NCBI GenBank assembly: GCA_016182185.1
Contig: JACOXU010000003.1
Coordinates: 1-55,973 of the forward strand
Direction of reading: 5' to 3'
Length of the DNA: 55,973 bases
Source of the DNA: Candidatus Levyibacteriota bacterium
Lineage (GTDB): Bacteria > Patescibacteriota > Microgenomatia > Levybacterales > UBA12049
In this document: piece after piece, positions 2,483-55,973 of the stretch
Position numbering within the stretch: position 1 is the first letter of the stretch
Layout of the letters: every line of letters starts with the position of its first letter
Position numbers and translations under genes: made by a program
The notes under the pieces: generated by a model
Told to the model about the DNA's origin: nothing
What the model saw: the letters and a program-made list of their open reading frames with translations, nothing else
The model's database searches: none

Positions 2483-2596
2483 GTATTCTAATTTCTAAAT
2501 CCTAATTTCTAATTATTCTAAATAAATCCTAAAATCCAAATCCCAATTTATAAACTGTTTAGACATTAGATCAATTAGATTAATTAGGTCAATTTC
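2483..2596. repeat. palindromic CTAAT/ATTAG-word intergenic repeat, ORF-less copy A
   Basis: Left arm has ctaatttctaa.../tctaattattctaa, centre has caaatcccaatt, right arm has attagatcaattag/aattaggtcaatt. Shares 12-14-nt exact blocks with 53314..53390, 53754..53790 and 31530..31647. Confidence 0.7.
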
Positions 2597-4327
2597 TCAT
2601 TCTTGTGCTACTCTTATTACCTCCTCTGGAGTCGTAAGTCCTTGCAAAACCTTTAAATAACCATCCTGCTTCATCGTAATCATTCCCTCCACAACTGCCT
2701 CTTTTTCAACAGTCTGAAGATCTGGCCTATCTAAGATTAGATTAGCAACTTTAGTTGTAACAGGCAATACCTCAAAAATTCCGACTCTCCCTAAATATCC
2801 GGAATTCCCACATTTTTCACATCCTTTTCCTTTATAAATACTGGGCTGGTTATTTCCTGAAGGATACAGCCGGCCCAAAACTGTTCTCATTTCATCGACG
2901 ATCGGTTTAAGCGGTGCAATTGCAATTTTGCAATATGAGCATATTTTTCTGACAATTCTTTGCCCGACTATTGCATTCATGGTTGATGCGAGTAAAAAGG
3001 GCTCTGCTCCTAGATCAATCAGACGTGGAAGTGCGCCGGCTGCATTTGATGTATGAAGAGTCGAAAAAACCAAATGACCGGTAAGAGACGCTTGAATTGC
3101 AAGCTCTGTAGTTTCCTTATCTCTTATCTCTCCGACGAGAATAATATTCGGATCTTGACGAAGAAATGATCGAAGTCCTGTCGCAAAAGTAAGCCCAACA
3201 GCCGGGTTAATCTGCACTTGGTTTACTCCATTCATTTGGTACTCGACTGGATCTTCAAGTGTCATTATGTTTACACGAGTCGTATTGAGTTTCTGAAGAA
3301 CTGCATAAAGAGTAGTAGTTTTACCGCTTCCGGTTGGTCCGCAAACGATTATGATTCCATGGGGCCTCAATATGCCTGCCTCCAAATTTTTAAGAGACAC
3401 TCCATCTAGGCCCAAATCCTGAAGCGTTGGTATCCCTCCTGATTTTTGAAGAAGTCTCATGGCTACTTTTTCACCAAAAACAGTCGGCATGACTGAAATA
3501 CGAAGATCTACCTCATTGATTTCCACCTTAAAATTAAATCGCCCGTCTTGAGGCGTACGATGTTCGTCAATTTTCATGTCTGAAAGAATCTTTATGCGGG
3601 ATATTACTGCCTCTTGCACTGTCTTGGGAAGACTTAATCTATCATATAAAATTCCATCTATTCTGTATCTTACTCTTATTCTATCTCCCTGAGGCTCGAT
3701 ATGAACATCTGAGGCCCTGCTTGAGACTGCATACTCAAGAATTGTAGAAACTATCTTGGCAATTGGCGCTTCCTTAATAATTTCGGCAATTTGACGGCTG
3801 TCAATAGTTTTTGTTTTGGTCAATTCTTGGTTTTCCTTAATTGCTTCACCTACTTCGCCGATTATTTCCTGTCTATATTGCTGGGTGATTGCCCGAGTTA
3901 TATCTTCTTGAGAGGCTGCAAACGTTTTAATATTTAATCCAGTTTTTTGTCTTACGAATTGAGAGGCTTCCAAATCAACAGGATTTGCCATCGCAACCGA
4001 AAGCGTTTTTGTTTTATCATCATAAAGAAAGGGGATTAAATTAAATCTTTCAGCAACTGATCTGGGAACAAATCCTAACGCATCAGGTGAAAATGAGGCA
4101 CTTGCAAGAGAGATAAAAGGAATTCCCAATAGTCTTGCCTTGATTTCAGCAATCTTCTCAATCGGAACTAAATTCAAATTAAGAAGAACGTCTTCATATG
4201 ATTTTCCTTCACTAGCACTTTTTACCTTGATATCATTGTATTGCTCGGGGGTAATTAGACGCTCTGACAGAAGAATGTCAATAAGAGTTTTATTTCCTGA
4301 AAAATCATCGATTGCTTGGGCAGACAT
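2597..4327 (-). CDS. pilB: type IV pilus assembly (extension) ATPase PilB/GspE
   Basis: 576 aa. Has an N-terminal GspE-N-like domain, Walker A GPTGSGKTTT, VGEIRD, GHLVFSTLHT, and the tetracysteine CSYC...CEKCGNSG. Confidence 0.9.
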   Translation of the reverse strand: MSAQAIDDFSGNKTLIDILLSERLITPEQYNDIKVKSASEGKSYEDVLLNLNLVPIEKIAEIKARLLGIPFISLASASFSPDALGFVPRSVAERFNLIPFLYDDKTKTLSVAMANPVDLEASQFVRQKTGLNIKTFAASQEDITRAITQQYRQEIIGEVGEAIKENQELTKTKTIDSRQIAEIIKEAPIAKIVSTILEYAVSSRASDVHIEPQGDRIRVRYRIDGILYDRLSLPKTVQEAVISRIKILSDMKIDEHRTPQDGRFNFKVEINEVDLRISVMPTVFGEKVAMRLLQKSGGIPTLQDLGLDGVSLKNLEAGILRPHGIIIVCGPTGSGKTTTLYAVLQKLNTTRVNIMTLEDPVEYQMNGVNQVQINPAVGLTFATGLRSFLRQDPNIILVGEIRDKETTELAIQASLTGHLVFSTLHTSNAAGALPRLIDLGAEPFLLASTMNAIVGQRIVRKICSYCKIAIAPLKPIVDEMRTVLGRLYPSGNNQPSIYKGKGCEKCGNSGYLGRVGIFEVLPVTTKVANLILDRPDLQTVEKEAVVEGMITMKQDGYLKVLQGLTTPEEVIRVAQE

Positions 4328-4368
4328 TAGTTCTATAGTAAGAAAAAATAAGCTATAATGTCAAGGAT

Positions 4369-5043
4369 ATGCAGTCAATTTTAATAGTTTCAAAAAATAA
4401 AACAAGCGCTCTTGAAAAAGCAATTTATATCTGTAAAGAAAACAAAATTGCAGATATAGATACAAATGTTGAGAATTTCGATAAGTCAGTTGGAATTGAA
4501 GATATCAGAAACATGCAAAAAAAACTATTTTTGAAACCAATCAAAAGCAATATTAAATCTATAATAATAAATTCTTTTCCTGGAATTACTATCGAAAGCC
4601 AAAATGCATTACTTAAAGTGCTTGAGGAACCTCCTCTCAATACTATTATGTTGATAATTACCGAAAATAAGAATCTATTTCTTTCAACTATTCTTTCAAG
4701 ATGTAAAATAATTGAGGTCAAGGAAAAAATTCAATTTTCAGACGAGGAAGTCTTAAATTATCAGAAAGATTTTAAAGAAATTTTGGAGGCAGGACTAGGA
4801 AAAAGACTTAAACTTGCACAAGATTTTGGCCAAAGCAAGGAAGAAGCGATAACGTGGCTCGAGCAAATGTTAATTACGATTAGAAAAACGATGATTGATA
4901 AAATAATTTCTTCAAAGGGAAATGAAAGTGATGGAACTTTTTACTTAAATATTCTTAAAAACTTTCAAAAAACCCATACAATAATTAAGACTAGCAATGT
5001 GAATCAGCGGTTCGCCCTTGAAAATCTATTTTTGCAGATATAA
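4369..5043 (+). CDS. holB: DNA polymerase III delta-prime-like subunit (short form)
   Basis: 224 aa. The LLKVLEEPP motif and following TILSRC motif are characteristic of clamp-loader delta-prime. TATAAT at 4354..4359 lies 9 nt before the ATG. Confidence 0.6.
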   Translation: MQSILIVSKNKTSALEKAIYICKENKIADIDTNVENFDKSVGIEDIRNMQKKLFLKPIKSNIKSIIINSFPGITIESQNALLKVLEEPPLNTIMLIITENKNLFLSTILSRCKIIEVKEKIQFSDEEVLNYQKDFKEILEAGLGKRLKLAQDFGQSKEEAITWLEQMLITIRKTMIDKIISSKGNESDGTFYLNILKNFQKTHTIIKTSNVNQRFALENLFLQI

Positions 5044-12342: not shown

Positions 12343-12428
12343 TTATTAGTAATTAGCCACTAGCGACTAGCAACTAGTGGTTTATTGTTTTACTAATGGC
12401 TAATTAACTAGTAGCTAGTTGCTGACTT
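12343..12428 (+). promoter_or_regulatory. structured CTAG-rich gyrA leader with interleaved inverted repeats
   Basis: taattagcca (12350..12359) pairs with tggctaatta (12397..12406). agcaactag (12369..12377) pairs with ctagttgct (12415..12423). There are three tandem ACTAGNN units and five CTAG tetramers. Confidence 0.45.
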
Positions 12429-15746: not shown

Positions 15747-15748
15747 TA

Positions 15749-15777
15749 TTGACATAACAATAATCTAACGATAGAAT
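15749..15777 (+). promoter_or_regulatory. near-consensus sigma70 promoter, leaderless geometry
   Basis: TTGACA 15749..15754, 17-nt spacer, TAGAAT 15772..15777, then 7 nt to ATG 15785. Confidence 0.5.
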
Positions 15778-15784
15778 AGCTCAA

Positions 15785-16596: not shown

Positions 16597-16611
16597 TTTT
16601 TTTAGATAGTA

Positions 16612-16639
16612 TTGACATAAAATAAATAAAACTTATACT
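16612..16639 (+). promoter_or_regulatory. candidate sigma70 promoter
   Basis: TTGACA 16612..16617, 16-nt spacer, TATACT 16634..16639, then 14 nt to ATG 16654. Confidence 0.45.
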
Positions 16640-16653
16640 ATTAATAGATACCT

Positions 16654-23581: not shown

Positions 23582-24376
23582 TATTCAACAAAAATGCTAA
23601 GCTCCTAAAAATATTGGGCATCCCATAGTAGGGGAGGGTATGATTTTTGGACCTTGGGATTTAACAGAGAATAAATACGGGAAATATAGGTACGCAATTA
23701 AAATTGTTAAATAATATGCACAAAAATTTGTACAAAAAAGACCACTTCTCCCATCCATCGTGCCTGAGTTATGTCGTAAAAGTATTATTGTACGACATAA
23801 TCACTTCCTCCCACCCTTGCACAAATACCGTAGATTTTTATAGACCTAACCATTTAGGGAAATAAGATAATCCATATAATGGAAGAAATAAGTCTTTGTA
23901 CTCTATCAGCGCAAAGAAAGTACTTTCTGCCATATCTTTATATAATCTTTACAACTCTCTCCTCTCTGTATCTTTGATAAGTCTTAGTTTAGCCCATTAA
24001 ATCAATCTAAATGTTAATTTTTAGCCTCAGAAATTGTAATTTTAGAAATATCAAAGGGCTCTATTAAGAGGAGAATGAACAAGCGTTCCACCGATTTAAT
24101 CGGTGTTCGTATTTATTTCAATTTGTAAGGATCTGTGGCTAAATATCCCTCTATTGTGTCTATATGCCCTCTGGGAGAAGGCTAAGTACGTATCCGTGAA
24201 AACTTAAGTTATAATATCGTGAAAATCAAAAGTTATCCACATCCGCCAGCTGGCGGCTGTCCTATAATATTTTCATCTACTATATCAAACAGTATCATCT
24301 ATGCATGGGTTAAAGCTTGAAAAAAAATCCGGCACTCGCCTCTCTCCCCTCTCCTGAGGATGGATAAAAATTTTAA

Positions 24377-25228: not shown

Positions 25229-25987
25229 CTATTCGTCTTTAAGAGCTATAATTATATTTTCGGGGATATCGAAATTCGCATATACGTTCTGCACATCTTC
25301 GAGGTCTTCAAGCTTGTCTACGAGAGATAAAATTTTTTTTGCCATTTCAGGATCTTTTACCTCAACGGTTGTAGTACTGTTTTTTGTAAGCTGCGCATCT
25401 TGAACACTCAATCCTTTATTTTCCAGCGAATTTTTTATGCTATAGAGTTCATTGGGTTTCGTATAAATTTCAACCAGCTTCCCTGCCTCCTTTACATCTT
25501 CTGCTCCCAAATCTACTGCTACTTCGAAAATTTCATCATAAGTTTTATTTCCCCTAGTAATTGCAATTAGCCCCTGATCTTTAAACATCCAGGAAACTGC
25601 ACCTAAGCTTGCAAATGTTCCCCCGTTTTTTTCGAGTAAATTTTTGATCTCAGACGTTGTACGATTTTTATTGTCGCTCGCAGCTTTTATAACAAGAGCG
25701 ACTCCACCCGGAGCAAATCCTTCATAGACTACTTCTTCCAAATTCCCCGCTTCCTTTTTAAGAGCCCGCTGAATTGCTCTTTCGACATTTTCTTTGGGCA
25801 TGTTTACGGATTTTGACGCATCGATTGCAAGTCTGAGCCTGAAATTTTGCGTTGGGTCAGCCACCCCTCCCCCATCTCTCACTGCAATTGTTATAGCATT
25901 GGCAAGTTTGGTAAAAACTAAACCTCTTTTAACATCTGCTTTTTGCTTCTGTCTTTTAATTTGCGACCATTTAGAATGTCCAGACAT
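25229..25987 (-). CDS. yebC: YebC/PmpR-family transcriptional/translational regulator
   Basis: 252 aa. The N-terminus MSGHSKWSQIKRQK and overall pattern are diagnostic of the YebC family. Confidence 0.9.
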   Translation of the reverse strand: MSGHSKWSQIKRQKQKADVKRGLVFTKLANAITIAVRDGGGVADPTQNFRLRLAIDASKSVNMPKENVERAIQRALKKEAGNLEEVVYEGFAPGGVALVIKAASDNKNRTTSEIKNLLEKNGGTFASLGAVSWMFKDQGLIAITRGNKTYDEIFEVAVDLGAEDVKEAGKLVEIYTKPNELYSIKNSLENKGLSVQDAQLTKNSTTTVEVKDPEMAKKILSLVDKLEDLEDVQNVYANFDIPENIIIALKDE

Positions 25988-26153
25988 ATTAAAAAATTTC
26001 TAATTTCTAAAATGCGGGGAGATATAAAATTTTTGCAGTTTTCACTAGCAGGTTTATGAATCTAGTTTGGGTATTGAGTTTTTTCGCGCTGAAAACAAGA
26101 AAATTTTTGTATCGACCTCAGCATTTTAAGTAATTCTATTATACGTTTCCGTA

Positions 26154-28173: not shown

Positions 28174-28950
28174 TTAATTTAACTTTGAAATGAAGCTTTC
28201 TAATTCTTTTGGGAGCGGAGATTCGAGCTTAATAATCTTGTTTTCGATCGGATGGATAAAGGAAATTCCGGCAGCGTGGAGAAAAAGACGGGGCAATACT
28301 TTTCTGTCATTTCTGGCAGTTTTACGCCCTGCGTAAAGAAAATCTGAAAAAACAGGGTGGTTAAAATATTTAAGATGCACTCTTATCTGATGCGTTCTTC
28401 CAGTTTTAGGTTTTAGCTCTAATAAACTTAAGGTCTCTTTCTCTAAATACTTAATATTTAATACTTTATACTGAGTGCTTGCCTCCCTTCCTCCTGCTAC
28501 GACTCCGAATCTTTTTCTATTAAATGGTAATCTTCCTACCGGCACACTTATTTCTCCCTCCAAAGGCGTGACTTTCCCATGGACCAGGGCGATATATTTT
28601 TTCTCAATTTTTCTTTCTTTAAACTGCCTCTGAAGATCAACAAATACCTCTGGGGTCTTTGCAATCAGAAGAATTCCCGAAGTTTCTTTATCAAGCCTAT
28701 GCACTATACCAGCTCTGCTGGTAAATTCCAAATCCCAAGCACCAAATCCCAATTTTTCTTTGTTTTTGATATTTAAATTTTGGAATTTATTTGAGATTTG
28801 AGATTTGAGATTTGAGATTTGAAGATGCCTTTCTGCCCAATCTTGTATTGTCTGCTGGTCCCCAGTTGTATCTGATCGATTAACAGTTATTCCGGATGGC
28901 TTACCTATTGCGACTAGATAATCATCTTCATATAATATTTTTATGTCCAT
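28174..28950 (-). CDS. RluA/RluD-family pseudouridine synthase carrying a 33-aa repeat-derived insertion
   Basis: 258 aa. Has YEDDYLVAIGKPSG, the catalytic HRLDKETSGILLIAKT, and GRTHQIRVHL. No S4 domain. Confidence 0.85.
   Translation of the reverse strand: MDIKILYEDDYLVAIGKPSGITVNRSDTTGDQQTIQDWAERHLQISNLKSQISNKFQNLNIKNKEKLGFGAWDLEFTSRAGIVHRLDKETSGILLIAKTPEVFVDLQRQFKERKIEKKYIALVHGKVTPLEGEISVPVGRLPFNRKRFGVVAGGREASTQYKVLNIKYLEKETLSLLELKPKTGRTHQIRVHLKYFNHPVFSDFLYAGRKTARNDRKVLPRLFLHAAGISFIHPIENKIIKLESPLPKELESFISKLN
28723..28821. repeat. palindromic CAAATCCC/GAGATTT-word repeat copy inside the rluD-like CDS
   Basis: ccaaatcccaagcaccaaatccc (28728..28750), tttttgatatttaaatttt (28763..28781; 18/19 identical to 41104..41122), and 4 x GAGATTT (28793..28820). 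Encodes QISNLKSQISNKFQNLNIKNKEKLGFGAWDLEF in frame. Confidence 0.6.
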
Positions 28951-31529: not shown

Positions 31530-31647
31530 AAATAAAAAAATTTCTAATTAACCTAATTGACCTAATTTCTAATATATAAAACTTTTTGGGATTTGGGAAT
31601 TGGGCTCTGGGATTTGATTAGATCAATTAGTCATTAGAAATTAGAAA
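31530..31647. repeat. palindromic CTAAT/ATTAG-word intergenic repeat, ORF-less copy B
   Basis: 31539..31565 (aatttctaattaacctaattgacctaa) is the exact reverse complement of 53757..53783. gggaattggg and gggatttgattag match the reverse complement of 53347..53368. attagatcaattag is shared with 2565..2578. Confidence 0.7.
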
Positions 31648-32604
31648 TTATTTTGTTCTTTTCACTCTTATAAGACCTGAGCAAGGTATCGTTTTTACTT
31701 TTCTCTTCTCAAGCTGATCAAGAAAGATATTTGCGCCGATTGAATCAGATGCCATGTGCCCCGTGTTGATCACATTGATATGAAGTTTTTTGACTTCCTG
31801 CAAAGCCTCCTCAGGTATGTGCATATCAATAATTGTTCCAATTCCAGCCTTTGCCATTTCCATATAAAGCTCTTTTGATGGATTTGTTCCACCCGTAAAT
31901 GAAATGAAGATCTTGCCTGCTCTTGATCGTTCGGATCCTGACAAAATCATAGGACCTGCTTTTCCCCGTCTTGCCTCAATAAACTCTGGAATTTTATTTA
32001 TTTCATCAATTATTTCTCCCACGGTATCAAATTTTTTCTTTGAAAGATAATCTTTCATAAATTTATGTCCGAGATTGTCCCAAATGGTATGAAGAGCAAG
32101 AAAAGGAATATCCAAAAGCCTTGCCGCATCTACATCCTGCCCATGGTTTCGAGGGTCAATTCTTCTTCTTACTGCGTTTTTTCGTTCTTCAAACAGAGCA
32201 TGCGCAACATTTGGAGCAATTCCTGCTTCTTCAAACATATCAACCTGAATATCCATTACCTCATGAAGACTTGCTAAGGCATGGCCTGTAGGATGATGAG
32301 AAATAAGAAGATCTATGCCCCGACCTTTCTGATTAAGTCTGTCCAAAAGTAAAAGATCGGCAACTCCGGCATCAATTCCGACCATAAGAGTATCCACCCT
32401 TATCTTTGAACCTCCATAGAGAATTCTTGAATCAGAATATGGGTTTTTCAAAGATTCTTTGTCGAAAAATTCTTTCTTCTTAAGAGAAAGTTCTTCGTAA
32501 TCTTTTTTGGTACGTGCCAAAAATTTCCTCACCCCTGCTTCACCTCTTGGATCTGCTTTAATCCCCATTTCAACTGCCAAATCGTAAATTTCTTGAAGTG
32601 TCAT
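31648..32604 (-). CDS. NIF3-family (DUF34) metal-binding protein
   Basis: 318 aa, with LISHHP and LHTIWDN motif contexts. Confidence 0.55.
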   Translation of the reverse strand: MTLQEIYDLAVEMGIKADPRGEAGVRKFLARTKKDYEELSLKKKEFFDKESLKNPYSDSRILYGGSKIRVDTLMVGIDAGVADLLLLDRLNQKGRGIDLLISHHPTGHALASLHEVMDIQVDMFEEAGIAPNVAHALFEERKNAVRRRIDPRNHGQDVDAARLLDIPFLALHTIWDNLGHKFMKDYLSKKKFDTVGEIIDEINKIPEFIEARRGKAGPMILSGSERSRAGKIFISFTGGTNPSKELYMEMAKAGIGTIIDMHIPEEALQEVKKLHINVINTGHMASDSIGANIFLDQLEKRKVKTIPCSGLIRVKRTK

Positions 32605-35006: not shown

Positions 35007-35114
35007 AAAATAATAAAAATCAAACCCCAGTAATCAAATCTCAAATTCCCTTTTTGATATTAGAATTTTAAAAATTACAATTTATTTGGAATTTGTAATT
35101 TGGGTTTTGGTATT
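35007..35114. repeat. palindromic CAAATC/GGAATTTG-word intergenic repeat, copy D
   Basis: 35049..35110 is colinear with 41102..41163, including an exact 22-mer atttatttggaatttgtaattt (35080..35101 = 41133..41154). Left arm caaaccccagtaatcaaatctcaaattccc is roughly complementary to right arm ggaatttgtaatttgggttttg. Confidence 0.6.
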
Positions 35115-37946: not shown

Positions 37947-37956
37947 TTAGATAAGA

Positions 37957-37985
37957 TTGACAAATCAACCCTTTTCTTTTAAAAT
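37957..37985 (+). promoter_or_regulatory. near-consensus sigma70 promoter, leaderless geometry
   Basis: TTGACA 37957..37962, 17-nt spacer, TAAAAT 37980..37985, then 8 nt to ATG 37994. Confidence 0.5.
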
Positions 37986-37993
37986 CAGGCCGC

Positions 37994-41056: not shown

Positions 41057-41178
41057 ATTAAATTACAAATAATATTTAAATTCTAATAATCGAATTCTAA
41101 ACATTTTTGATATTTGAATTTTGAAAATTGGTATTTATTTGGAATTTGTAATTTTGAATTTTGGAGCTTAATAATATT
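41057..41178. repeat. palindromic CAAATC/GGAATTTG-word intergenic repeat, copy E
   Basis: Colinear with 35049..35110. tttttgatatttgaatttt (41104..41122) is 18/19 identical to 28763..28781. The left part (aaattacaaata...aataatatttaa) resembles 55942..55969. Confidence 0.6.
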
Positions 41179-44953: not shown

Positions 44954-44968
44954 AAATAGCCTCAAAAC

Positions 44969-44997
44969 TTGACAAGAAAATCCCAAAGTAATATAAT
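44969..44997 (+). promoter_or_regulatory. consensus sigma70 promoter
   Basis: TTGACA 44969..44974, 17-nt spacer, TATAAT 44992..44997, then 11 nt to ATG 45009. Confidence 0.55.
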
Positions 44998-45008
44998 CCT
45001 ATAGTTAT

Positions 45009-45704
45009 ATGATCACAACTGAAACCAGCAGAAAAATCTCAAGAAGAGACCTTTTGTCTATGGTGATAAAGAGTGTAACTCTTCTTGGATTAGCGAAGAT
45101 AAGTGTTGCCTGTGGCAAAGACAATACTCCATCGGGTGCAACTCAAGAAACCCCCAGTGCATCATCTCAAATACCATCAGAATCCCCTACTGCAAAAGCA
45201 ACTGAAGCTCCAACACTTGAGCCAACCCAAGCTTCAACACGAACAGAAATCCAGCCCACTCCTCCCTGTCAGATTTTGGAAGATAAATACTGCAGTTCCG
45301 CAAGATTAACCGAGTGGAAAAATAGCGTTGGTCAAATATTTAAGGTTGTCTCTCTTGATCTTCCGGAGGGAGTTTCTATCATAACTCCATTTGATGGAAC
45401 ATTTACGTACTCTGATGGTCCCGGGAATCTTGTTGATCCCAATGCTCCTGCTGCTGTAGTTTATAAACCTGTGAGTGAAAGTGATCAGAGTAATCTAACC
45501 TTCATGGTTACAGGAGATATAGAATTTGACAGAAGTCAGATTGAAATTAAAAAAGGTGATGTCATTGCAAGAACCGGAAATACCGGACTTAAGGTGCTTG
45601 ATGGAACAATAGCGATCGTGATTACATCGCTTGATCCTGAAAAAAAGACATTCGGCACAGATGAGGCGCTTCTTGAGAATTTATTTCCGAACCTAGTAAA
45701 ATAA
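45009..45704 (+). CDS. exported degenerate LytM/M23-like protein (paralogue 2), Tat-like signal and possible lipobox
   Basis: 231 aa. SRRDLLSMV twin-Arg-like motif, ISVAC, a PT/S-rich linker, and CQILEDKYC...PFDGTFTYSDGPGNL...IKKGDVIARTGNTG. Confidence 0.5.
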   Translation: MITTETSRKISRRDLLSMVIKSVTLLGLAKISVACGKDNTPSGATQETPSASSQIPSESPTAKATEAPTLEPTQASTRTEIQPTPPCQILEDKYCSSARLTEWKNSVGQIFKVVSLDLPEGVSIITPFDGTFTYSDGPGNLVDPNAPAAVVYKPVSESDQSNLTFMVTGDIEFDRSQIEIKKGDVIARTGNTGLKVLDGTIAIVITSLDPEKKTFGTDEALLENLFPNLVK

Positions 45705-47810: not shown

Positions 47811-47872
47811 TTTTCCAAAAATTCAGAATATACCTCTTGACACATTAATACTGCATCAATTACTCTTAAATT

Positions 47873-48481
47873 ATGCTTTCTGGTTTGCTGAGAAAACCAA
47901 TTTTTTGGATTGGACTTATCATCATATTTATAATAGTACTCATAGTTCTTCTCTTTGAAACAAAATCTACTGTAGTTACCTCGGACAACCAACAAGCTAC
48001 GCGAGATAAATCTCCCCAAAGCATTTCTCAGAAACAGAAATTAAAACCTGGAACTTGTCTTATTCTTGAACAGAAATATTGTGATTTAGGAAAAGCTTCT
48101 GAATGGAAGAATCCCGCCGGACAAGTATTTAAAATTGTATCCTTTAATCTCCCCGAAGGGGTTTCTATTATGGCTCCATTTGATGGAACATTTACGTACT
48201 CTGATGGACCCGGAAATCTTATAGATCCTAATGCTCCTGCTGCTGTAGTTTATAAGCCGGTGACTAAGACTGATCAAACTAATTTAACTTTCATGGTCAC
48301 AGGGGATATAGAATTTGACAAAGAACAAACAATTATCAAGAAAGGTGACCAAATTGCCAGAGCTGGAAATACCGGATTTAAAGTTTTGGGGGGAACGGTA
48401 GCAGCGTTGGTGACGAAAATTGAAAATTCAAAAACTATAAACGATGAAAATTTATTTAACATAATTTTGAATAAGAAATAA
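47873..48481 (+). CDS. membrane-anchored degenerate LytM/M23-like protein (paralogue 3)
   Basis: 202 aa. The C-terminal about 125 aa are highly similar to 45009..45704, with exact 34-nt and 26-nt DNA runs. Its stop is 4 nt before the giant gene. Confidence 0.5.
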   Translation: MLSGLLRKPIFWIGLIIIFIIVLIVLLFETKSTVVTSDNQQATRDKSPQSISQKQKLKPGTCLILEQKYCDLGKASEWKNPAGQVFKIVSFNLPEGVSIMAPFDGTFTYSDGPGNLIDPNAPAAVVYKPVTKTDQTNLTFMVTGDIEFDKEQTIIKKGDQIARAGNTGFKVLGGTVAALVTKIENSKTINDENLFNIILNKK

Positions 48482-51400: not shown

Positions 51401-53294
51401 AGGCATAACCCAGGATTGGGGGATACAACCTATCCCCACAAATACCCCAACCCCCACTCCGGTTCCAAATAACATCACGGGGATTGTCTTTGTTGACACA
51501 AATAGAAACGGCGTGCAAAACGTAGGAGAAGTGGGCTATCCTGGCGGAGCAAAAGTAGATTTACTTGACTGCCGCGGAAGCTGTACCCAGCTAGACAGTA
51601 AGCTAACAGACCCAAATGGACAATTTGCTTTCAATGGTCTGGCGGCGGCAACTTATTCAGTCTTTTTAAACCGTCCTCTAGGATATACTCTTACAACCGT
51701 GAGTCAAAGAAACTTGACTCTGCCTCCTGATGGCACTGCCAACTTTGGTATTGCCGCAAATGCCTTTATTCACGGAACTTTTGTAGATAAAAGCCTAAAT
51801 ATCTTAACAACCAACATTGGCCAGAATGTAACAATCAATAAGAACGTAGTCGTATCTTCAAGAACAAACGGAACTTATAGTTTTGAGGTTATTCCTGCAA
51901 CCGGCTTTTCTGCTACAGCTACTGTTCCTGTCGGATATACAGTTTTGTCTTGCATAGCCAGTATAATAGTAAATGGCGTTACTCAACAACAGAATGACTG
52001 CTGGCAATTGTCTTCCTATCAACCTGTTAACCCGGTTTCAAATATTGATCTTCCTAATGCATTTGATGATGCAAATATCTGGTTCATGTACTTCAGTCCC
52101 AAGACAATTTCAGGAAATGTGTTTGTGGATACGGATAAAGACGGATTTAAGGATGCAACAGAATCAAACTATACAGGAGGAGGAATAACAATATCATCTG
52201 GTGATGGAACTGTAAACGTCAATCAGGCGGCAGGAACTTACCAGATAACCAACCTTGACTCCGGAACTTACTTTGTCTCCTATTCAGGAATTCCGGCAGG
52301 CTACGCAGCGACATTTCCTGTTCCAACCTCCTATTCTGCCACAGTTGGGACAGGATGCACATGGTCGCCCAACACTATCCCCCCGCTTGGCAACCCGACC
52401 AATGCATCTTGCGATGTCAATAACAATATCAGAGATCTTAATTTTGGAATTACCGATTCACAACCTTGGATTCAGACAGAAGGCGGAGATATAAGAGTTG
52501 ATGATGGATTTGTAGACAACATTCCTCCATCAACCGGTCCCGGAGGCACGGATTCTTGTCCGACGAGTTCTGACGCATCGGTTCCGCCTGCCTCAGGATC
52601 TCCGGGCGTAATCTTCTCAGGTGATTCAATTCCAGATTTTGGTCAGGGACAAGCTTCGGCTCCCAACTGGCAGATTGGAGATCCAACATTTGGCGAAATT
52701 TACATTCCTCCCAATCCGGGAGAACTCTCAACTTCCTACAACAGCATGATGACCAAGATCAACCAGGCAGGTCTTACCCCGACAACAATCACGAGTATTA
52801 CAGACATTACCGCCAATGGACTATATCTGGTGAATGGTGACCTTTTGGTCAATAGTGATTATAATTTTGGAGCAAACCAAAATTATGTCATTCTTGTCAA
52901 CGGCAACATGTGGATCGGCGGAAATATTGACGTTCCGACCGGTTCAACTGCAGTCTTTATCGTCAAGGGAAATACTGGTTCATTCCCCAGCAATCGAGGA
53001 ATAACTGTCGCCCCGGCAACCACTCGAATCGAAGGATACTTCAGCACTGACTGGAACTTTATCATCCCAAGCGCAAGCGCCTGCGCTCTGGGACCAGACA
53101 CCCAACTAATAATAGAAGGTGCAGTAGTCGTTAATGCGGTTACTGCAAATGGAGGCCAATTTATCCTTGAGAGAGACTTGTGTTCGGGAAACGTCTGCCC
53201 TGCCGTAGTTGTAATTGTCAGACCAGACTTTGTTCTCAATGCTCCGGCAATCCTGATGAGGACAAACGCCCTCAGACAAGAAGTAGCACCATAG
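48486..53294 (+). CDS. giant secreted surface protein: Cys-rich N-domain, SdrD-B-like repeats with PT linkers, unknown C-terminal domain
   Basis: 1602 aa. Signal peptide ...SQKASA|Q. 22 Cys within about 190 aa. Five (I/V)(S/T/V)G.V(F/Y).D.N..G repeats. PTNTPTPT linkers. Visibly G+C-richer than its flanks. Confidence 0.7.
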   Translation: MNKIKNLFLSILGIIFLFSLFSLSVSISQKASAQTTVYIEGSIPSGWAPCNSSSCPANPFPGGTCANGSGVGVPVGACGWPACEGGSAWQRYQLASSSTCYANGPLCYWVFQLSSNVCSLGDKCTAAQPYLNYGYPNCETGACQVGGIYKTCCSGSNIDGACVQSNIDNISPPEGSCPSGTSTVMCLDSANTGSTCEALFGCNNCNVGGGVYCTNSACGASACQAIFPQATPVPTTSPTGAIQGYHVEMPALNAYPMGAKTALLDGGNQTTDNPYGTGSQFASPAWNNISAGNHTVSINSVSTAWGAGYTLCYNVTNCHNSSPTAGTSVTVNVPSGGYADLWWHYFPPPTASINIVGSTTRTIGENITFNANANDGNSNLQSGEIFWSTNSSPGSWNSLGSSAISGSTATFSKTWNTSGRSAGSYVVVVNASSKYSAHCTGNPFQLVNDVSCGPNGASTNDTDVVVVNLIDPVPTYSVSGRVYIDNGKDINGNNAGTYGDGFQTCSGACDNGAGDERGYTTEVDISSGLFADLRNTNSVGYYIFSSLPSAIYNIYPIIGSGYSCSPGNTCNRNINVTANTTVNFGLVPAPTNTPTPTLTPTPTTVPGYTISGNVFNDTNRNGIQDCSGACDNGSGDETNYSGASLTLRTGSCTGTSLGSRTSGSTSPGYSYTGLTNGTTYYVVLTRPSGKDITTPNATLCSGSNYYVTRTIAGTNVTLHWGLANPITPTPTLAPTATPIPASVWGKYFADDGPGACYGNRVQDCGEPPIVSQGIYVQDGDCWWAPSCNWSSVTDSSGNYSISGPASGRTYRYNTGIPTDYSSLGYVRDRICKPFTPGCDIASVPEPPWWFYLSPPVQIDVLLEPPPHDIVGNIFVDSNGNGVQDCSGTCNDGPGDEVKYTQERIIELRTGSCTGTLVGDYTARGSYSFRDLSPQTYYIIFPLPSGYTLTTPASATICSGSNYFAERVMPQLGGITQDWGIQPIPTNTPTPTPVPNNITGIVFVDTNRNGVQNVGEVGYPGGAKVDLLDCRGSCTQLDSKLTDPNGQFAFNGLAAATYSVFLNRPLGYTLTTVSQRNLTLPPDGTANFGIAANAFIHGTFVDKSLNILTTNIGQNVTINKNVVVSSRTNGTYSFEVIPATGFSATATVPVGYTVLSCIASIIVNGVTQQQNDCWQLSSYQPVNPVSNIDLPNAFDDANIWFMYFSPKTISGNVFVDTDKDGFKDATESNYTGGGITISSGDGTVNVNQAAGTYQITNLDSGTYFVSYSGIPAGYAATFPVPTSYSATVGTGCTWSPNTIPPLGNPTNASCDVNNNIRDLNFGITDSQPWIQTEGGDIRVDDGFVDNIPPSTGPGGTDSCPTSSDASVPPASGSPGVIFSGDSIPDFGQGQASAPNWQIGDPTFGEIYIPPNPGELSTSYNSMMTKINQAGLTPTTITSITDITANGLYLVNGDLLVNSDYNFGANQNYVILVNGNMWIGGNIDVPTGSTAVFIVKGNTGSFPSNRGITVAPATTRIEGYFSTDWNFIIPSASACALGPDTQLIIEGAVVVNAVTANGGQFILERDLCSGNVCPAVVVIVRPDFVLNAPAILMRTNALRQEVAP

Positions 53295-53313
53295 CTTCAT
53301 CAATAATGAAGCT
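53293..53313 (+). terminator. hairpin overlapping the giant-gene stop codon
   Basis: agcttcat-caata-atgaagct gives an 8-bp stem. No T-run follows, so terminator function is uncertain. Confidence 0.35.
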
Positions 53314-53390
53314 ACAATTACCTAATTACTCTAATTATTCTAATTACTAATCAAATCCCAATTCCCCAATCTCAAGCTCTTAGGTTAATT
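53314..53390. repeat. CTAAT-word arm flanking the four-helix-bundle ORF (copy C, left arm)
   Basis: cctaattactctaattattctaattactaatcaaatcccaattccccaatctcaag. Shares tctaattattctaa and caaatcccaatt with 2483..2596. Confidence 0.65.
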
Positions 53391-53753
53391 CTATTTGACC
53401 TTCTTATAAATCGAGTTAAAAATCAAGTTAAGTTCTTTTGCCTCTTGCCATAAAACCTTAGCATCTTCCTTTAACTCTGGAACTGCAACAACAATCATTC
53501 TTATAAAATGTTTGGCTTCCCTTGATTCCTTTTTGCAAATTCCAATCTTATGTTTAAAATCTAACTTACTTTCTGCATCATCTGCTTCGCAATAGTTAGC
53601 ACCAATACTTGTTCCGCACTTTATAAATTGATTAATCAAGGGATCCGTAATTGGCCCTCTTGGAACTTTTTTACAAAATTTTATCGTATCTTCTCCAAAC
53701 TTTGCCGTCCTCTCTTCCAGATCATATTTTTGGACATTAGAAGTATTAGTCAT
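53391..53753 (-). CDS. four-helix-bundle protein (23S rRNA intervening-sequence protein / Avd-like family)
   Basis: 120 aa. YDLEERTAKFGEDTIKFCKKVP...INQFIKCGTSIGANYCEADDAESKLDFKHKIGICKKESREAKHFIRMI matches the family pattern (YDLEER..F......G.S..AN..EA....S..DF.HK..I..KE..E..YWL). Confidence 0.8.
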   Translation of the reverse strand: MTNTSNVQKYDLEERTAKFGEDTIKFCKKVPRGPITDPLINQFIKCGTSIGANYCEADDAESKLDFKHKIGICKKESREAKHFIRMIVVAVPELKEDAKVLWQEAKELNLIFNSIYKKVK

Positions 53754-53790
53754 TTTTTAGGTCAATTAGGTTAATTAGAAATTAGGTCAA
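53754..53790. repeat. ATTAG-word arm flanking the four-helix-bundle ORF (copy C, right arm)
   Basis: tttttaggtcaattaggttaattagaaattaggtcaa. 53757..53783 is the exact reverse complement of 31539..31565. The arm abuts the murB stop codon. Confidence 0.7.
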
Positions 53791-54741
53791 TTAAATTATT
53801 GTGATTTCTTCTTCAAGTTCTACTCCGAATTTTTCTTTTATGGTTTTTTTGACAATTTTGATAAGTTCAAGGACATCATCGGCTTTCGCATTCCCTAAAT
53901 TTATAATAAAATTAGGATGTTTCTCAGATACCTGCGCATCCCCGACTCTTCTCCCCGGAAGGTCTGAGAATGCAATAAGCTTAGCAGTAGGGAGAACCGG
54001 AAAGGGATCATTTTTAATTGAACTTTTAAATTCTTTTATCACTTCTTCAGGAACAATTTCAAGGGGAATATTTTTGAATATGCTTCCCACATTTGGATAT
54101 TCCAATGGATGGCGGTTTTTTCTATAAGTAATTTTTTCTTCAATTTTCCCCTTAATGTCCTTGCTCTTATCCTTTTTGAGCCGAAATACTGCAGAAAGAA
54201 TAATTTCATCCTTACCTCCTCCGGTCTTAAAAAGACTACCTCTGTAATTAAATTCACACTCTCTATTTTTTCTTTTTTTAATCTCGAATGTCTCTATATC
54301 AAAGCTTTCTGTCTCTAAAAGTATGTCTTTGGTTTCTCCTCCAAATGCGCCGGCATTGCCTCTTACTGCGCCCCCTACTGTCCCGGGGAGTCCGCCTGCC
54401 CACTCAAAGCCAGACAAAGAATTTTCTATACAAAAAGTAAGTAAGTCACTCACCAGAACCCCTGCGCCGACCGCAACCTTATCTGAATTTAATATTTCAA
54501 TATTGTTTACCTTGTTATGAATTACTAGTCCTGAAAAACCCTTGCTGCCAAAAAGAATATTTGTCCCATCACCTAATATCAGAGTTCTATTTTTATCGGA
54601 ATTTTTAGATATTTCTTTCCACTCTTTAAGTCCTGAAAGTAAATTTTGAACGTTTTTGATTTCCAAAAAATAAGCGGCAGTCCCGCCAATCTTAAAATTT
54701 GAATAGTTTTTAAGAGGAACGTTTCGTCGGATCGTACTCAT
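53791..54741 (-). CDS. murB: UDP-N-acetylenolpyruvoylglucosamine reductase
   Basis: 316 aa. NFKIGGTAAYF (FAD domain), GGLPGTVGGAVRGNAGAFGGE, and a C-terminal MurB domain. Confidence 0.9.
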   Translation of the reverse strand: MSTIRRNVPLKNYSNFKIGGTAAYFLEIKNVQNLLSGLKEWKEISKNSDKNRTLILGDGTNILFGSKGFSGLVIHNKVNNIEILNSDKVAVGAGVLVSDLLTFCIENSLSGFEWAGGLPGTVGGAVRGNAGAFGGETKDILLETESFDIETFEIKKRKNRECEFNYRGSLFKTGGGKDEIILSAVFRLKKDKSKDIKGKIEEKITYRKNRHPLEYPNVGSIFKNIPLEIVPEEVIKEFKSSIKNDPFPVLPTAKLIAFSDLPGRRVGDAQVSEKHPNFIINLGNAKADDVLELIKIVKKTIKEKFGVELEEEITII

Positions 54742-55922: not shown

Positions 55923-55973
55923 ATAAATAAATCACAAATCCAAAATTACAAATACTAAATAATATTTAAGCTA
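55923..55973. repeat. partial copy of the CAAATC/AATTACAAAT-word repeat (copy F, cut by window edge)
   Basis: cacaaatccaaaattacaaatactaaataatatttaagc. Shares aaattacaaata and aataatatttaa with 41060..41090. Confidence 0.4.

Follow-up and report, generated by a model that had tools for sequence, protein, structure and literature searches.

Proteins of the four-helix-bundle family PF05635/TIGR02436 came to light in the early 1990s in intervening sequences of 23S rRNA, and no role has been assigned to them since. The rRNA elements with this protein family are flanked by a stem that is cut by RNase III, the Coxiella stem being 28 bp long and nearly perfect (PMC4990558). Family genes have also been found wedged inside cas operons (PMC3936711) and inside rRNA insertions of the Candidate Phyla Radiation (CPR; PMC11270868). 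Here we describe a member of this family located between protein-coding genes of Candidatus Levyibacteriota, in the 55,973 nts of contig JACOXU010000003.1 (GCA_016182185.1; 37.6% GC), referred to below as the window. Positions 53316..53793, designated copy C, probably form one copy of a small inverted-repeat gene cassette whose arms are composed of short CTAATT and AATTAG words. These arms also occur in the window as two copies, A and B, devoid of an open reading frame (ORF). In a preliminary description of the window, this arrangement was not known to have been described for the protein family; we found in the searchable literature no description of conserved arms, of arms-only copies or of junction-specific placement. 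The features discussed are the following:

53754..53793, minus strand: 5′ (left) arm, reading AATTGACCTAATTTCTAATTAACCTAATTGACCTAAAAA on this strand; from the sequence and a profile of foreign ORF-less elements.
53391..53753, minus strand: 120-aa four-helix-bundle gene of the PF05635/TIGR02436 family; from hidden Markov models (HMM) and a structure model.
53316..53390, minus strand: 3′ part of the cassette; from the sequence and the same profile.
53288..53318, minus strand: terminator-like hairpin with a 14-pair stem and a T-rich tail; host context outside the repeat family.
2483..2596, minus strand: ORF-less copy A, composed of left arm, short centre and right arm; profile match 2491-2591 (-), E 4e-15.
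31530..31647, plus strand: ORF-less copy B; profile match 31541-31648 (+), E 2e-16.

Read in the orientation of its gene, the proposed cassette would begin with a left arm in which about four CTAATT words are placed 9 or 7 nts apart; there would follow the 120-aa gene, an inner TTGGGATTT motif and a right arm with four to five AATTAG words. The left arm of copy C occupies the interval between the stop codon of murB and the four-helix-bundle gene's ATG, and its first word overlaps the murB stop codon. Past the stop codon of the ORF, the minus strand reads AATTAACCTAAGAGCTTGAGATTGGGGAATTGGGATTTGATTAGTAATTAGAATAATTAGAGTAATTAGG and then enters the terminator-like hairpin. The order in this 3′ part is stop codon, a residual left-arm word AATTAACCTAA, the inner GGGGAATTGGGATTTG motif and the AATTAG right arm GATTAGTAATTAGAATAATTAGAGTAATTAGG, a layout that recurs in related loci. 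The profile, built solely from ORF-less elements of other genomes, matched both sides of the gene: 53755-53790(-) in the left arm (model positions 2-39, E 9e-5) and 53319-53390(-) in the 3′ part (model positions 27-100, E 1e-9). Upstream of copy C lies murB; on the other side, the terminator-like hairpin separates the cassette from a convergent giant gene with SdrD_B repeats. Copy A fills the whole gap between a pilB-like and a pilT-like gene, and copy B, inverted relative to the flanking minus-strand genes, fills the gap upstream of efp. The profile reproduced the copy orientations given earlier (A as C, B inverted). The neighbours named at that time (pilB-like, pilT-like, efp, murB and the giant gene) were recovered as well, except that the ‘NIF3’ label of 31648-32604 was not confirmed at E<=1e-5. 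A promoter reading of the arms was rejected: consensus scans remained at the level of shuffled sequence, and the next start codon lies anywhere from 0 to ~12 nts beyond the right end.

The 23S rRNA intervening sequences (IVS) with an S23p/IVS-protein ORF, as in Leptospira and Coxiella (PMC4990558), resemble the cassette in their protein family, the inverted repeats around the ORF, their size (~430-760 nts) and their complementary ends able to form a stem. They too have ORF-less variants and a sporadic distribution long suspected to reflect horizontal transfer. They differ in that the cassette lies between protein-coding genes and not in helix 25 or 45 of 23S rRNA, that its arms are arrays of short words instead of one near-perfect 28-bp stem, and that it shows no sign of selection on RNA pairing. 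Moreover, its ORF has remained intact and shows strong conservation, in contrast to the decaying ORF of Coxiella. With MITEs (miniature inverted-repeat transposable elements) and their autonomous parents, the cassette shares terminal inverted repeats, short non-coding derivatives that outnumber gene-bearing copies, an intergenic position and presence/absence variation at orthologous sites. In contrast to these, its gene-bearing form encodes the 120-aa helical bundle alone and no transposase recognisable by Pfam or NCBIfam, no target-site duplication is definable, and synonymous sites are saturated between copies, implying slow turnover. Repetitive extragenic palindromes (REPs; as doublets, REPINs) with their REP-associated tyrosine transposases (RAYTs) are similar in having a single small gene flanked by cognate inverted repeats, gene-less intergenic doublets and lineage-specific repeats. 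However, RAYTs are relatives of HUH/Y1 transposases with catalytic motifs, a domain that neither Pfam nor NCBIfam reports in the cassette protein, and REPs are short G+C-rich hairpins whereas the cassette arms are A+T-rich word arrays. Finally, Avd of the diversity-generating retroelements (DGRs) has the same Pfam family and fold, is also a small basic bundle and acts within an RNA-protein complex, but differs in sequence (~14-18% identity). No reverse transcriptase or RVT domain was found beside the window cassette or among the genes called around five other contexts; DGR template or variable repeats were not noticed in the window, no search having been aimed at them.

The assignment of the 120-aa ORF to the four-helix-bundle family, already made in the preliminary description, was borne out by scores of 37.1 bits with PF05635 (gathering score 33.8) and 58.2 bits with TIGR02436 (cut-off 24). 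The AlphaFold2 model, made of the monomer, shows four helices (mean predicted local distance difference test, pLDDT, 91.9), and residues 1-8, encoded by CTAAT words, are predicted to be disordered. The top Foldseek matches were 2RLD, an entry of five chains (template modelling score, TM, 0.59-0.85 over the five), and 2GSC (TM up to ~0.8). Behind them came Avd (8UB7 and 4DWL, TM 0.61-0.72), in line with the fold-level link suggested earlier. 2RLD was also matched in sequence by phmmer (E 2.3e-9), and the calculated isoelectric point is 8.8. The rate of nonsynonymous substitution (dN) in the cassette gene is ~0.1, with synonymous substitution (dS) saturated and dN/dS ~0.07, values which indicate strong purifying selection on the protein. 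Relatives number at least 7999 database proteins at E<=1e-3 (7999 of the 8000 candidates scored), the closest homologues being from CPR/Microgenomates genomes; in species-representative genomes, at least 554 loci encode one. None was found in a viral contig collection, and neither PHROGs nor PADLOC lists a family for the protein; carriage by phages was rejected on this basis. Identity with a HEPN-type RNase was likewise rejected, HMM and literature support both being absent.

Flanks of the gene were compared across all loci fetched from other genomes (designated by L-numbers). By the criterion of at least two CTAAT words in the 60 nts upstream and at least two ATTAG words in the 120 nts downstream, the gene sits between the same arms at 78 of the 86 related loci (69-89% amino acid identity), against backgrounds of 0.09 and 0.20. 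The best 80 of the at least 554 loci (69-87% protein identity) derive from Microgenomates, from several Parcubacteria lineages and from contigs with labels such as Bacteroidota, Ignavibacteria and Caldithrix. Conservation starts at AAATT(A/G)AC on the left and stops at AATTAGAAATTT on the right, with AATT at each end. The left arm most often holds four words and the right arm four to five, with a spacing of 9 or 7 nts; the 6-nt words are separated by variable 1-3-nt spacers, and both arms draw on the same small set of spacer triplets. Host GC content ranges from 28 to 54%; the arms remain at 15-36% GC and retain their words. The cassette is conserved as a whole unit over many CPR lineages and some other phyla. 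The ORF had been regarded as cargo of a dispersed palindromic element, or as inserted into or deleted from it. The dispersed element stands, but the arms are not a repeat of this particular genome: they are conserved with the gene over hundreds of genomes and several phyla, and other subfamilies possess their own arms.

The cassette fills gaps of a few nts between consecutive genes of housekeeping operons. These contexts are unrelated among loci and include FtsK/HTH, M48 peptidase/Obg, hypothetical/ATP synthase, mreB, pilin genes and murB. A median of 40 nts separates the upstream stop codon from the cassette ATG. The gene is on the strand of the upstream host gene at 75 of 78 loci (57 to 1 in co-directional contexts), and again in 44 of 53 cases of a second, diverse set. 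Such co-orientation would be expected of a gene transcribed by read-through from the host operon; most simply, it would lack its own promoter and be retained only at places traversed by host transcription. Two look-ups of an identical protein in different contexts returned one context each; a very recent transposition was not observed.

The 27-nt exact reverse-complement match between copies B (31539-31565) and C (53757-53783) pointed out earlier was confirmed: there are 2 matches in the window against 0 in 100 shuffles. Allowing at most one mismatch, CTAATTNNNCTAAT occurs 12 times, always within copies A, B and C (shuffles: mean 2.9, maximum 8). The arms and the ORF-less copies A and B lie far beyond chance expectation. 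Exact arm matches of at least 27 nts are nevertheless shared by 1.9% of element pairs from different genomes. This weakens the 27-mer as a sign of recent duplication; what it shows is membership in the family. The longest exact arm matches are slightly longer between copies of one genome (median 17.5 nts) than between genomes (15 nts, p=0.01).

A scan for ORF-less elements in other genomes, with the pattern left arm, GGGATTT and right arm, returned at least 120 stretches; in 123 of the 124 matches listed, the family gene is absent within 250 nts. About 10 non-CPR matches are chance occurrences in coding DNA and the others are clear ~90-nt elements. Placement and pairing statistics were drawn from the 67 arms-only elements in L111-L230. 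These fill the whole gene gap, with a median of 6-12 nts to each neighbour, and 60 of the 67 lie between co-directional genes (38 in one orientation and 22 in the other), with 4 in convergent and 3 in divergent gaps.

Different states were observed at the same sites. One orthologous gap is empty in L243 (~2 nts), L248, L249 and L250, holds an arms-only element in L207, a full CTAATT cassette in L087 and, in L315, a cassette with GTTCAT/ATGAAC arms that belongs to another subfamily. In L087 (~2960-2975) the first word of the element, AAT-TGA-CC, provides the host gene with its stop codon, and the close relative L243, lacking the element, uses its own TAA. The gap orthologous to that of copy A is occupied by an arms-only element in L225, empty and 5 nts long in L140, and filled with a hairpin of other words in L205. 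Similarly, L150 carries an arms-only copy where the same two genes have no gap in L003. Orthologous gaps are thus empty, arms-only (~90 nts) or occupied by the full cassette, and copies A and B are arms-only versions. This agrees with the earlier view of a dispersed palindromic element with and without ORF; the element is inserted and lost in a MITE-like manner. Some insertions are common to related genomes, such as the insertion downstream of murB seen in L023 and in the window; vertical inheritance therefore prevails, and gain or loss is occasional. The MurB proteins nearest to that of the window in the genome collection (47-49% identity) belong to loci that lack the element and are too distant for definition of the junctions.

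In about 12 of 70 gene-bearing copies, including that of the window, a segment of left arm is found past the stop codon. The gene is in this way flanked by direct repeats, recombination of which would leave an arms-only element. Many arms-only copies retain AATGACCAAT-like centres resembling the first codons of the gene. Since this stretch is also part of a CCAAT/ATTGG inner palindrome, the change may have been either a deletion or an insertion.

Other gaps of the window hold related-looking material. A lone AAATTTCTAATTTCTAAAA fragment at 25988-26015, by the start of the minus-strand gene 25229-25987, looks like a half-arm and was unreported by the profile search. The 86-nt gap 12343-12428 contains a strong hairpin (-27.2 kcal/mol, z -3.6) with ATTAG/CTAAT and CACTAG/CTAGT words, the G-containing arm coming first. 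A second palindromic gap-filling family is present at 28715-28825, 35007-35114, 41057-41160 and 55923-55973. Its members have in common a core TTTTTGATATTTnAATTTT and an arm ATTTATTTGGAATTTGTAATTT composed of AAATnnCAA/TTGnnATTT words, in an architecture like that of the CTAATT arms-only copies.

Diverged family members carry other words. L076 has ATCAATT/AATTGAT arms, the second gene of L087 has arm words of CATAGC type, and L231 carries CTGACAA/TTGTCAG arms beside mreB. A scan with a canonical family member yielded loci of 30-57% identity in Chloroflexi, Bacteroidota, Planctomycetes, Campylobacterales, Nitrospirae and CPR. Among its 58 usable genes, pairing of the upstream with the downstream flank reaches -33.9 kcal/mol when both belong to the same gene, versus -24.5 with the flanks of other loci (p<5e-5), and the own partner ranks within the top three in 25 of the 58. 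The arms of these diverse members are tandem short words private to each lineage.

Side by side arrangements of subfamilies were also seen. In L231, two cassettes of different subfamilies (3001-3363 and 4588-4962), with CTAATT and CTGACAA/TTGTCAG arms respectively, flank mreB in one operon. In L241, a CTAATT cassette is nested inside a hairpin of AAATCCGAA/TTCGGATTT words (760-847 and 1210-1300), and hairpin loops may accordingly be tolerated or preferred as insertion sites. Contigs L300 and L265, from Planctomycetes, have at ~1200-2070 a gene of another subfamily between homologues of the pilB-like and pilT-like neighbours of copy A; this gap is either a recurrent target or a coincidence.

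We favour, with some reserve, the view that this inverted-repeat cassette operates at the level of DNA and is the operon-gap counterpart of the rRNA intervening sequences. It would be a mobile element of selfish type, corresponding in protein operons to the hairpin-flanked ORF elements known from 23S rRNA. Its arms would serve as terminal repeats with multiple sites, comparable to transposon ends that hold several binding sites, and would probably be recognised by the encoded, putatively pentamer-forming protein, cutting and joining being supplied by something outside the cassette. Arms-only copies would arise through loss of the gene, for instance by recombination of the left arm with the residual left-arm word past the stop codon, and then persist like MITEs. 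On reading their sequence, the arms carry stop codons in several frames, which would let the element abut a host stop codon harmlessly.

Several points weigh against this proposal. No transposase, recombinase or catalytic motif was found in or near the cassettes, and the binding of arms by the protein is something we infer. Both ends finish in palindromic AAATT/AATT and the empty sites are too diverged for base-by-base alignment, so that no target-site duplication could be defined. With saturated synonymous sites and several insertions common to related genomes, movement must be slow, and no recent event was caught. That the cassettes are confined to gene gaps could be due to selection and not to targeting. 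The list of phyla is approximate, since part of the genome labels in the collection cannot be relied upon. Also, the arms are able to form a long stem in the transcript fold, which is compatible with RNase III processing as in rRNA intervening sequences.

This last point belongs to an alternative in which the element is an RNA-level module like the rRNA intervening sequences. The arms would pair on the operon transcript and be cleaved by RNase III, either excising the gene mRNA or punctuating the polycistronic RNA, and arms-only copies would be processing or stabilising hairpins that serve the host. Both the minimum-energy and the centroid fold predicted for a 506-nt transcript pair the two arms and contain the terminator-like hairpin as well. 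In gene-bearing CTAATT copies the arm-arm duplex reaches -28.3 kcal/mol versus -12.7 for shuffled arms. The fold z-scores are -1.7 for copy A and -3.6 for copy B, nearly all copies are inside co-directional operons, and stem-flanked, RNase III-cut rRNA elements are precisely where this protein family was described (PMC4990558). However, the arms of a gene-bearing element pair no better with each other than with those of other elements (-28.3 vs -28.7 kcal/mol, p=0.75). In arms-only copies they pair significantly worse (-19.5 vs -22.4), which may reflect avoidance of perfect palindromes. Element-specific complementarity was thus rejected as the signature of an RNA stem, being absent in the former and reversed in the latter. 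Transition mismatches show no excess of G·U over A·C on the transcribed strand (142 vs 145; 42 vs 55 in the diverse set). Both orientations are found among arms-only copies, and the stems are mostly 6-bp A/U-rich helices broken by unmatched triplets, unlike the Coxiella stem. Conservation concerns the words and their spacing and not the pairing, which points to recognition at the DNA level and away from an RNase III stem of the 28-bp Coxiella type. A location in rRNA was rejected too: Rfam reported one tRNA and no rRNA in the window, conserved rRNA motifs were absent beside all of the ~170 loci, and the flanks are protein-coding. The RNA-processing role suggested in the preliminary description therefore finds no support in these tests, and we consider it unlikely.

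The conserved words could also be explained by a domesticated regulator, a four-helix-bundle ring binding them in single-stranded RNA, like the trp RNA-binding attenuation protein (TRAP), or in DNA. In other operons, the arms-only copies would then be what it targets, and autoregulation would come from the arms of its own gene. Four to five conserved 6-nt words per arm with variable 1-3-nt spacers would suit such a ring, solved relatives having crystallised with five chains, and so would the left arm that abuts and overlaps the start codon. The strong purifying selection, the coexistence of gene-bearing and arms-only copies in the same genomes and the membership of the fold relative Avd in an RNA-protein complex (8UB7) are equally consistent with it. 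Yet the occupied gaps differ among related genomes and are often empty, unlike a conserved regulon. Different subfamilies can also use one gap (L087 vs L315) or one operon (L231), and the binding of words by the protein is purely hypothetical. We hold a regulator to be distinctly improbable. Still less probable, in our opinion, is the absence of any dedicated mobility, with arms acting as generic substrates on which homologous recombination or gene conversion shuffles the gene among pre-existing hairpin gaps, the incoming DNA being perhaps acquired by uptake. It would fit with arms as complementary or similar across elements as within them, with the slightly longer matches inside genomes, with the nesting in L241 and with the second left-arm segment of ~12/70 gene-bearing copies, the direct repeats of which could delete or capture the gene. 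But arms of 35-50 nts made of interrupted 6-nt words are at or under the usual RecA-type minimum, and neither first arrival in gaps that are 2-5 nts long in relatives nor the private words of every protein subfamily would be explained. As for a chance resemblance of AT-rich low-complexity intergenic DNA beside an ordinary small gene, it could invoke the low GC content of the window and the word-like palindromes in several of its other gaps. It is already refuted by the shuffle controls, by profile E-values of 1e-9 to 2e-16 and by the recurrence of the same arms in 78 of 86 loci of other genomes, and we give it practically no credit.

The unit made of a gene and subfamily-specific arms, its insertion at junctions of essential operons, its orientation lock and its arms-only relics make experimentally concrete the old guess that the ORF helps the element to move. 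Some of the unusual palindromic DNA between the genes of CPR genomes is explained, and such gaps should be annotated as repeat elements and not as promoters or CRISPR-like arrays. A possible route to the origin of DGR Avd is suggested as well. The PF05635/TIGR02436 family is very large, and its ‘rRNA intervening-sequence protein’ is a puzzle of about 30 years. More tentatively, and with the odds rather against it, the four-helix-bundle ‘IVS proteins’ might be the factor that binds, in a sequence-specific manner, the ends of mobile cassettes that lack a transposase and make up a large, unrecognised class. Each arm would offer four to five binding words to a pentamer, and cutting and joining would be borrowed from the host or from a trans-acting enzyme, possibly a reverse transcriptase as with Avd. 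Such a class would account for the rRNA intervening sequences, for the scattering of the family inside operons, cas operons included, and for the evolutionary origin of Avd.

Three further observations concern other parts of the window. The gaps 4328-4368, 15747-15784, 16597-16653, 37947-37993, 44954-45008 and 47811-47872 contain TTGACA, ~17 nts and TAnAAT, ending ~5-10 nts before a start codon and with no Shine-Dalgarno sequence. This suggests widespread leaderless or very-short-leader mRNAs in this organism. Positions 23582-24376 (795 nts) lack a long ORF, an Rfam match above noise and a tRNA or tmRNA, and could be an unrecognised RNA gene or a decayed coding sequence. Finally, a 300-nt direct repeat with 76% identity (45267-45566 and 48056-48355) lies in two neighbouring genes and probably corresponds to paralogous domains.

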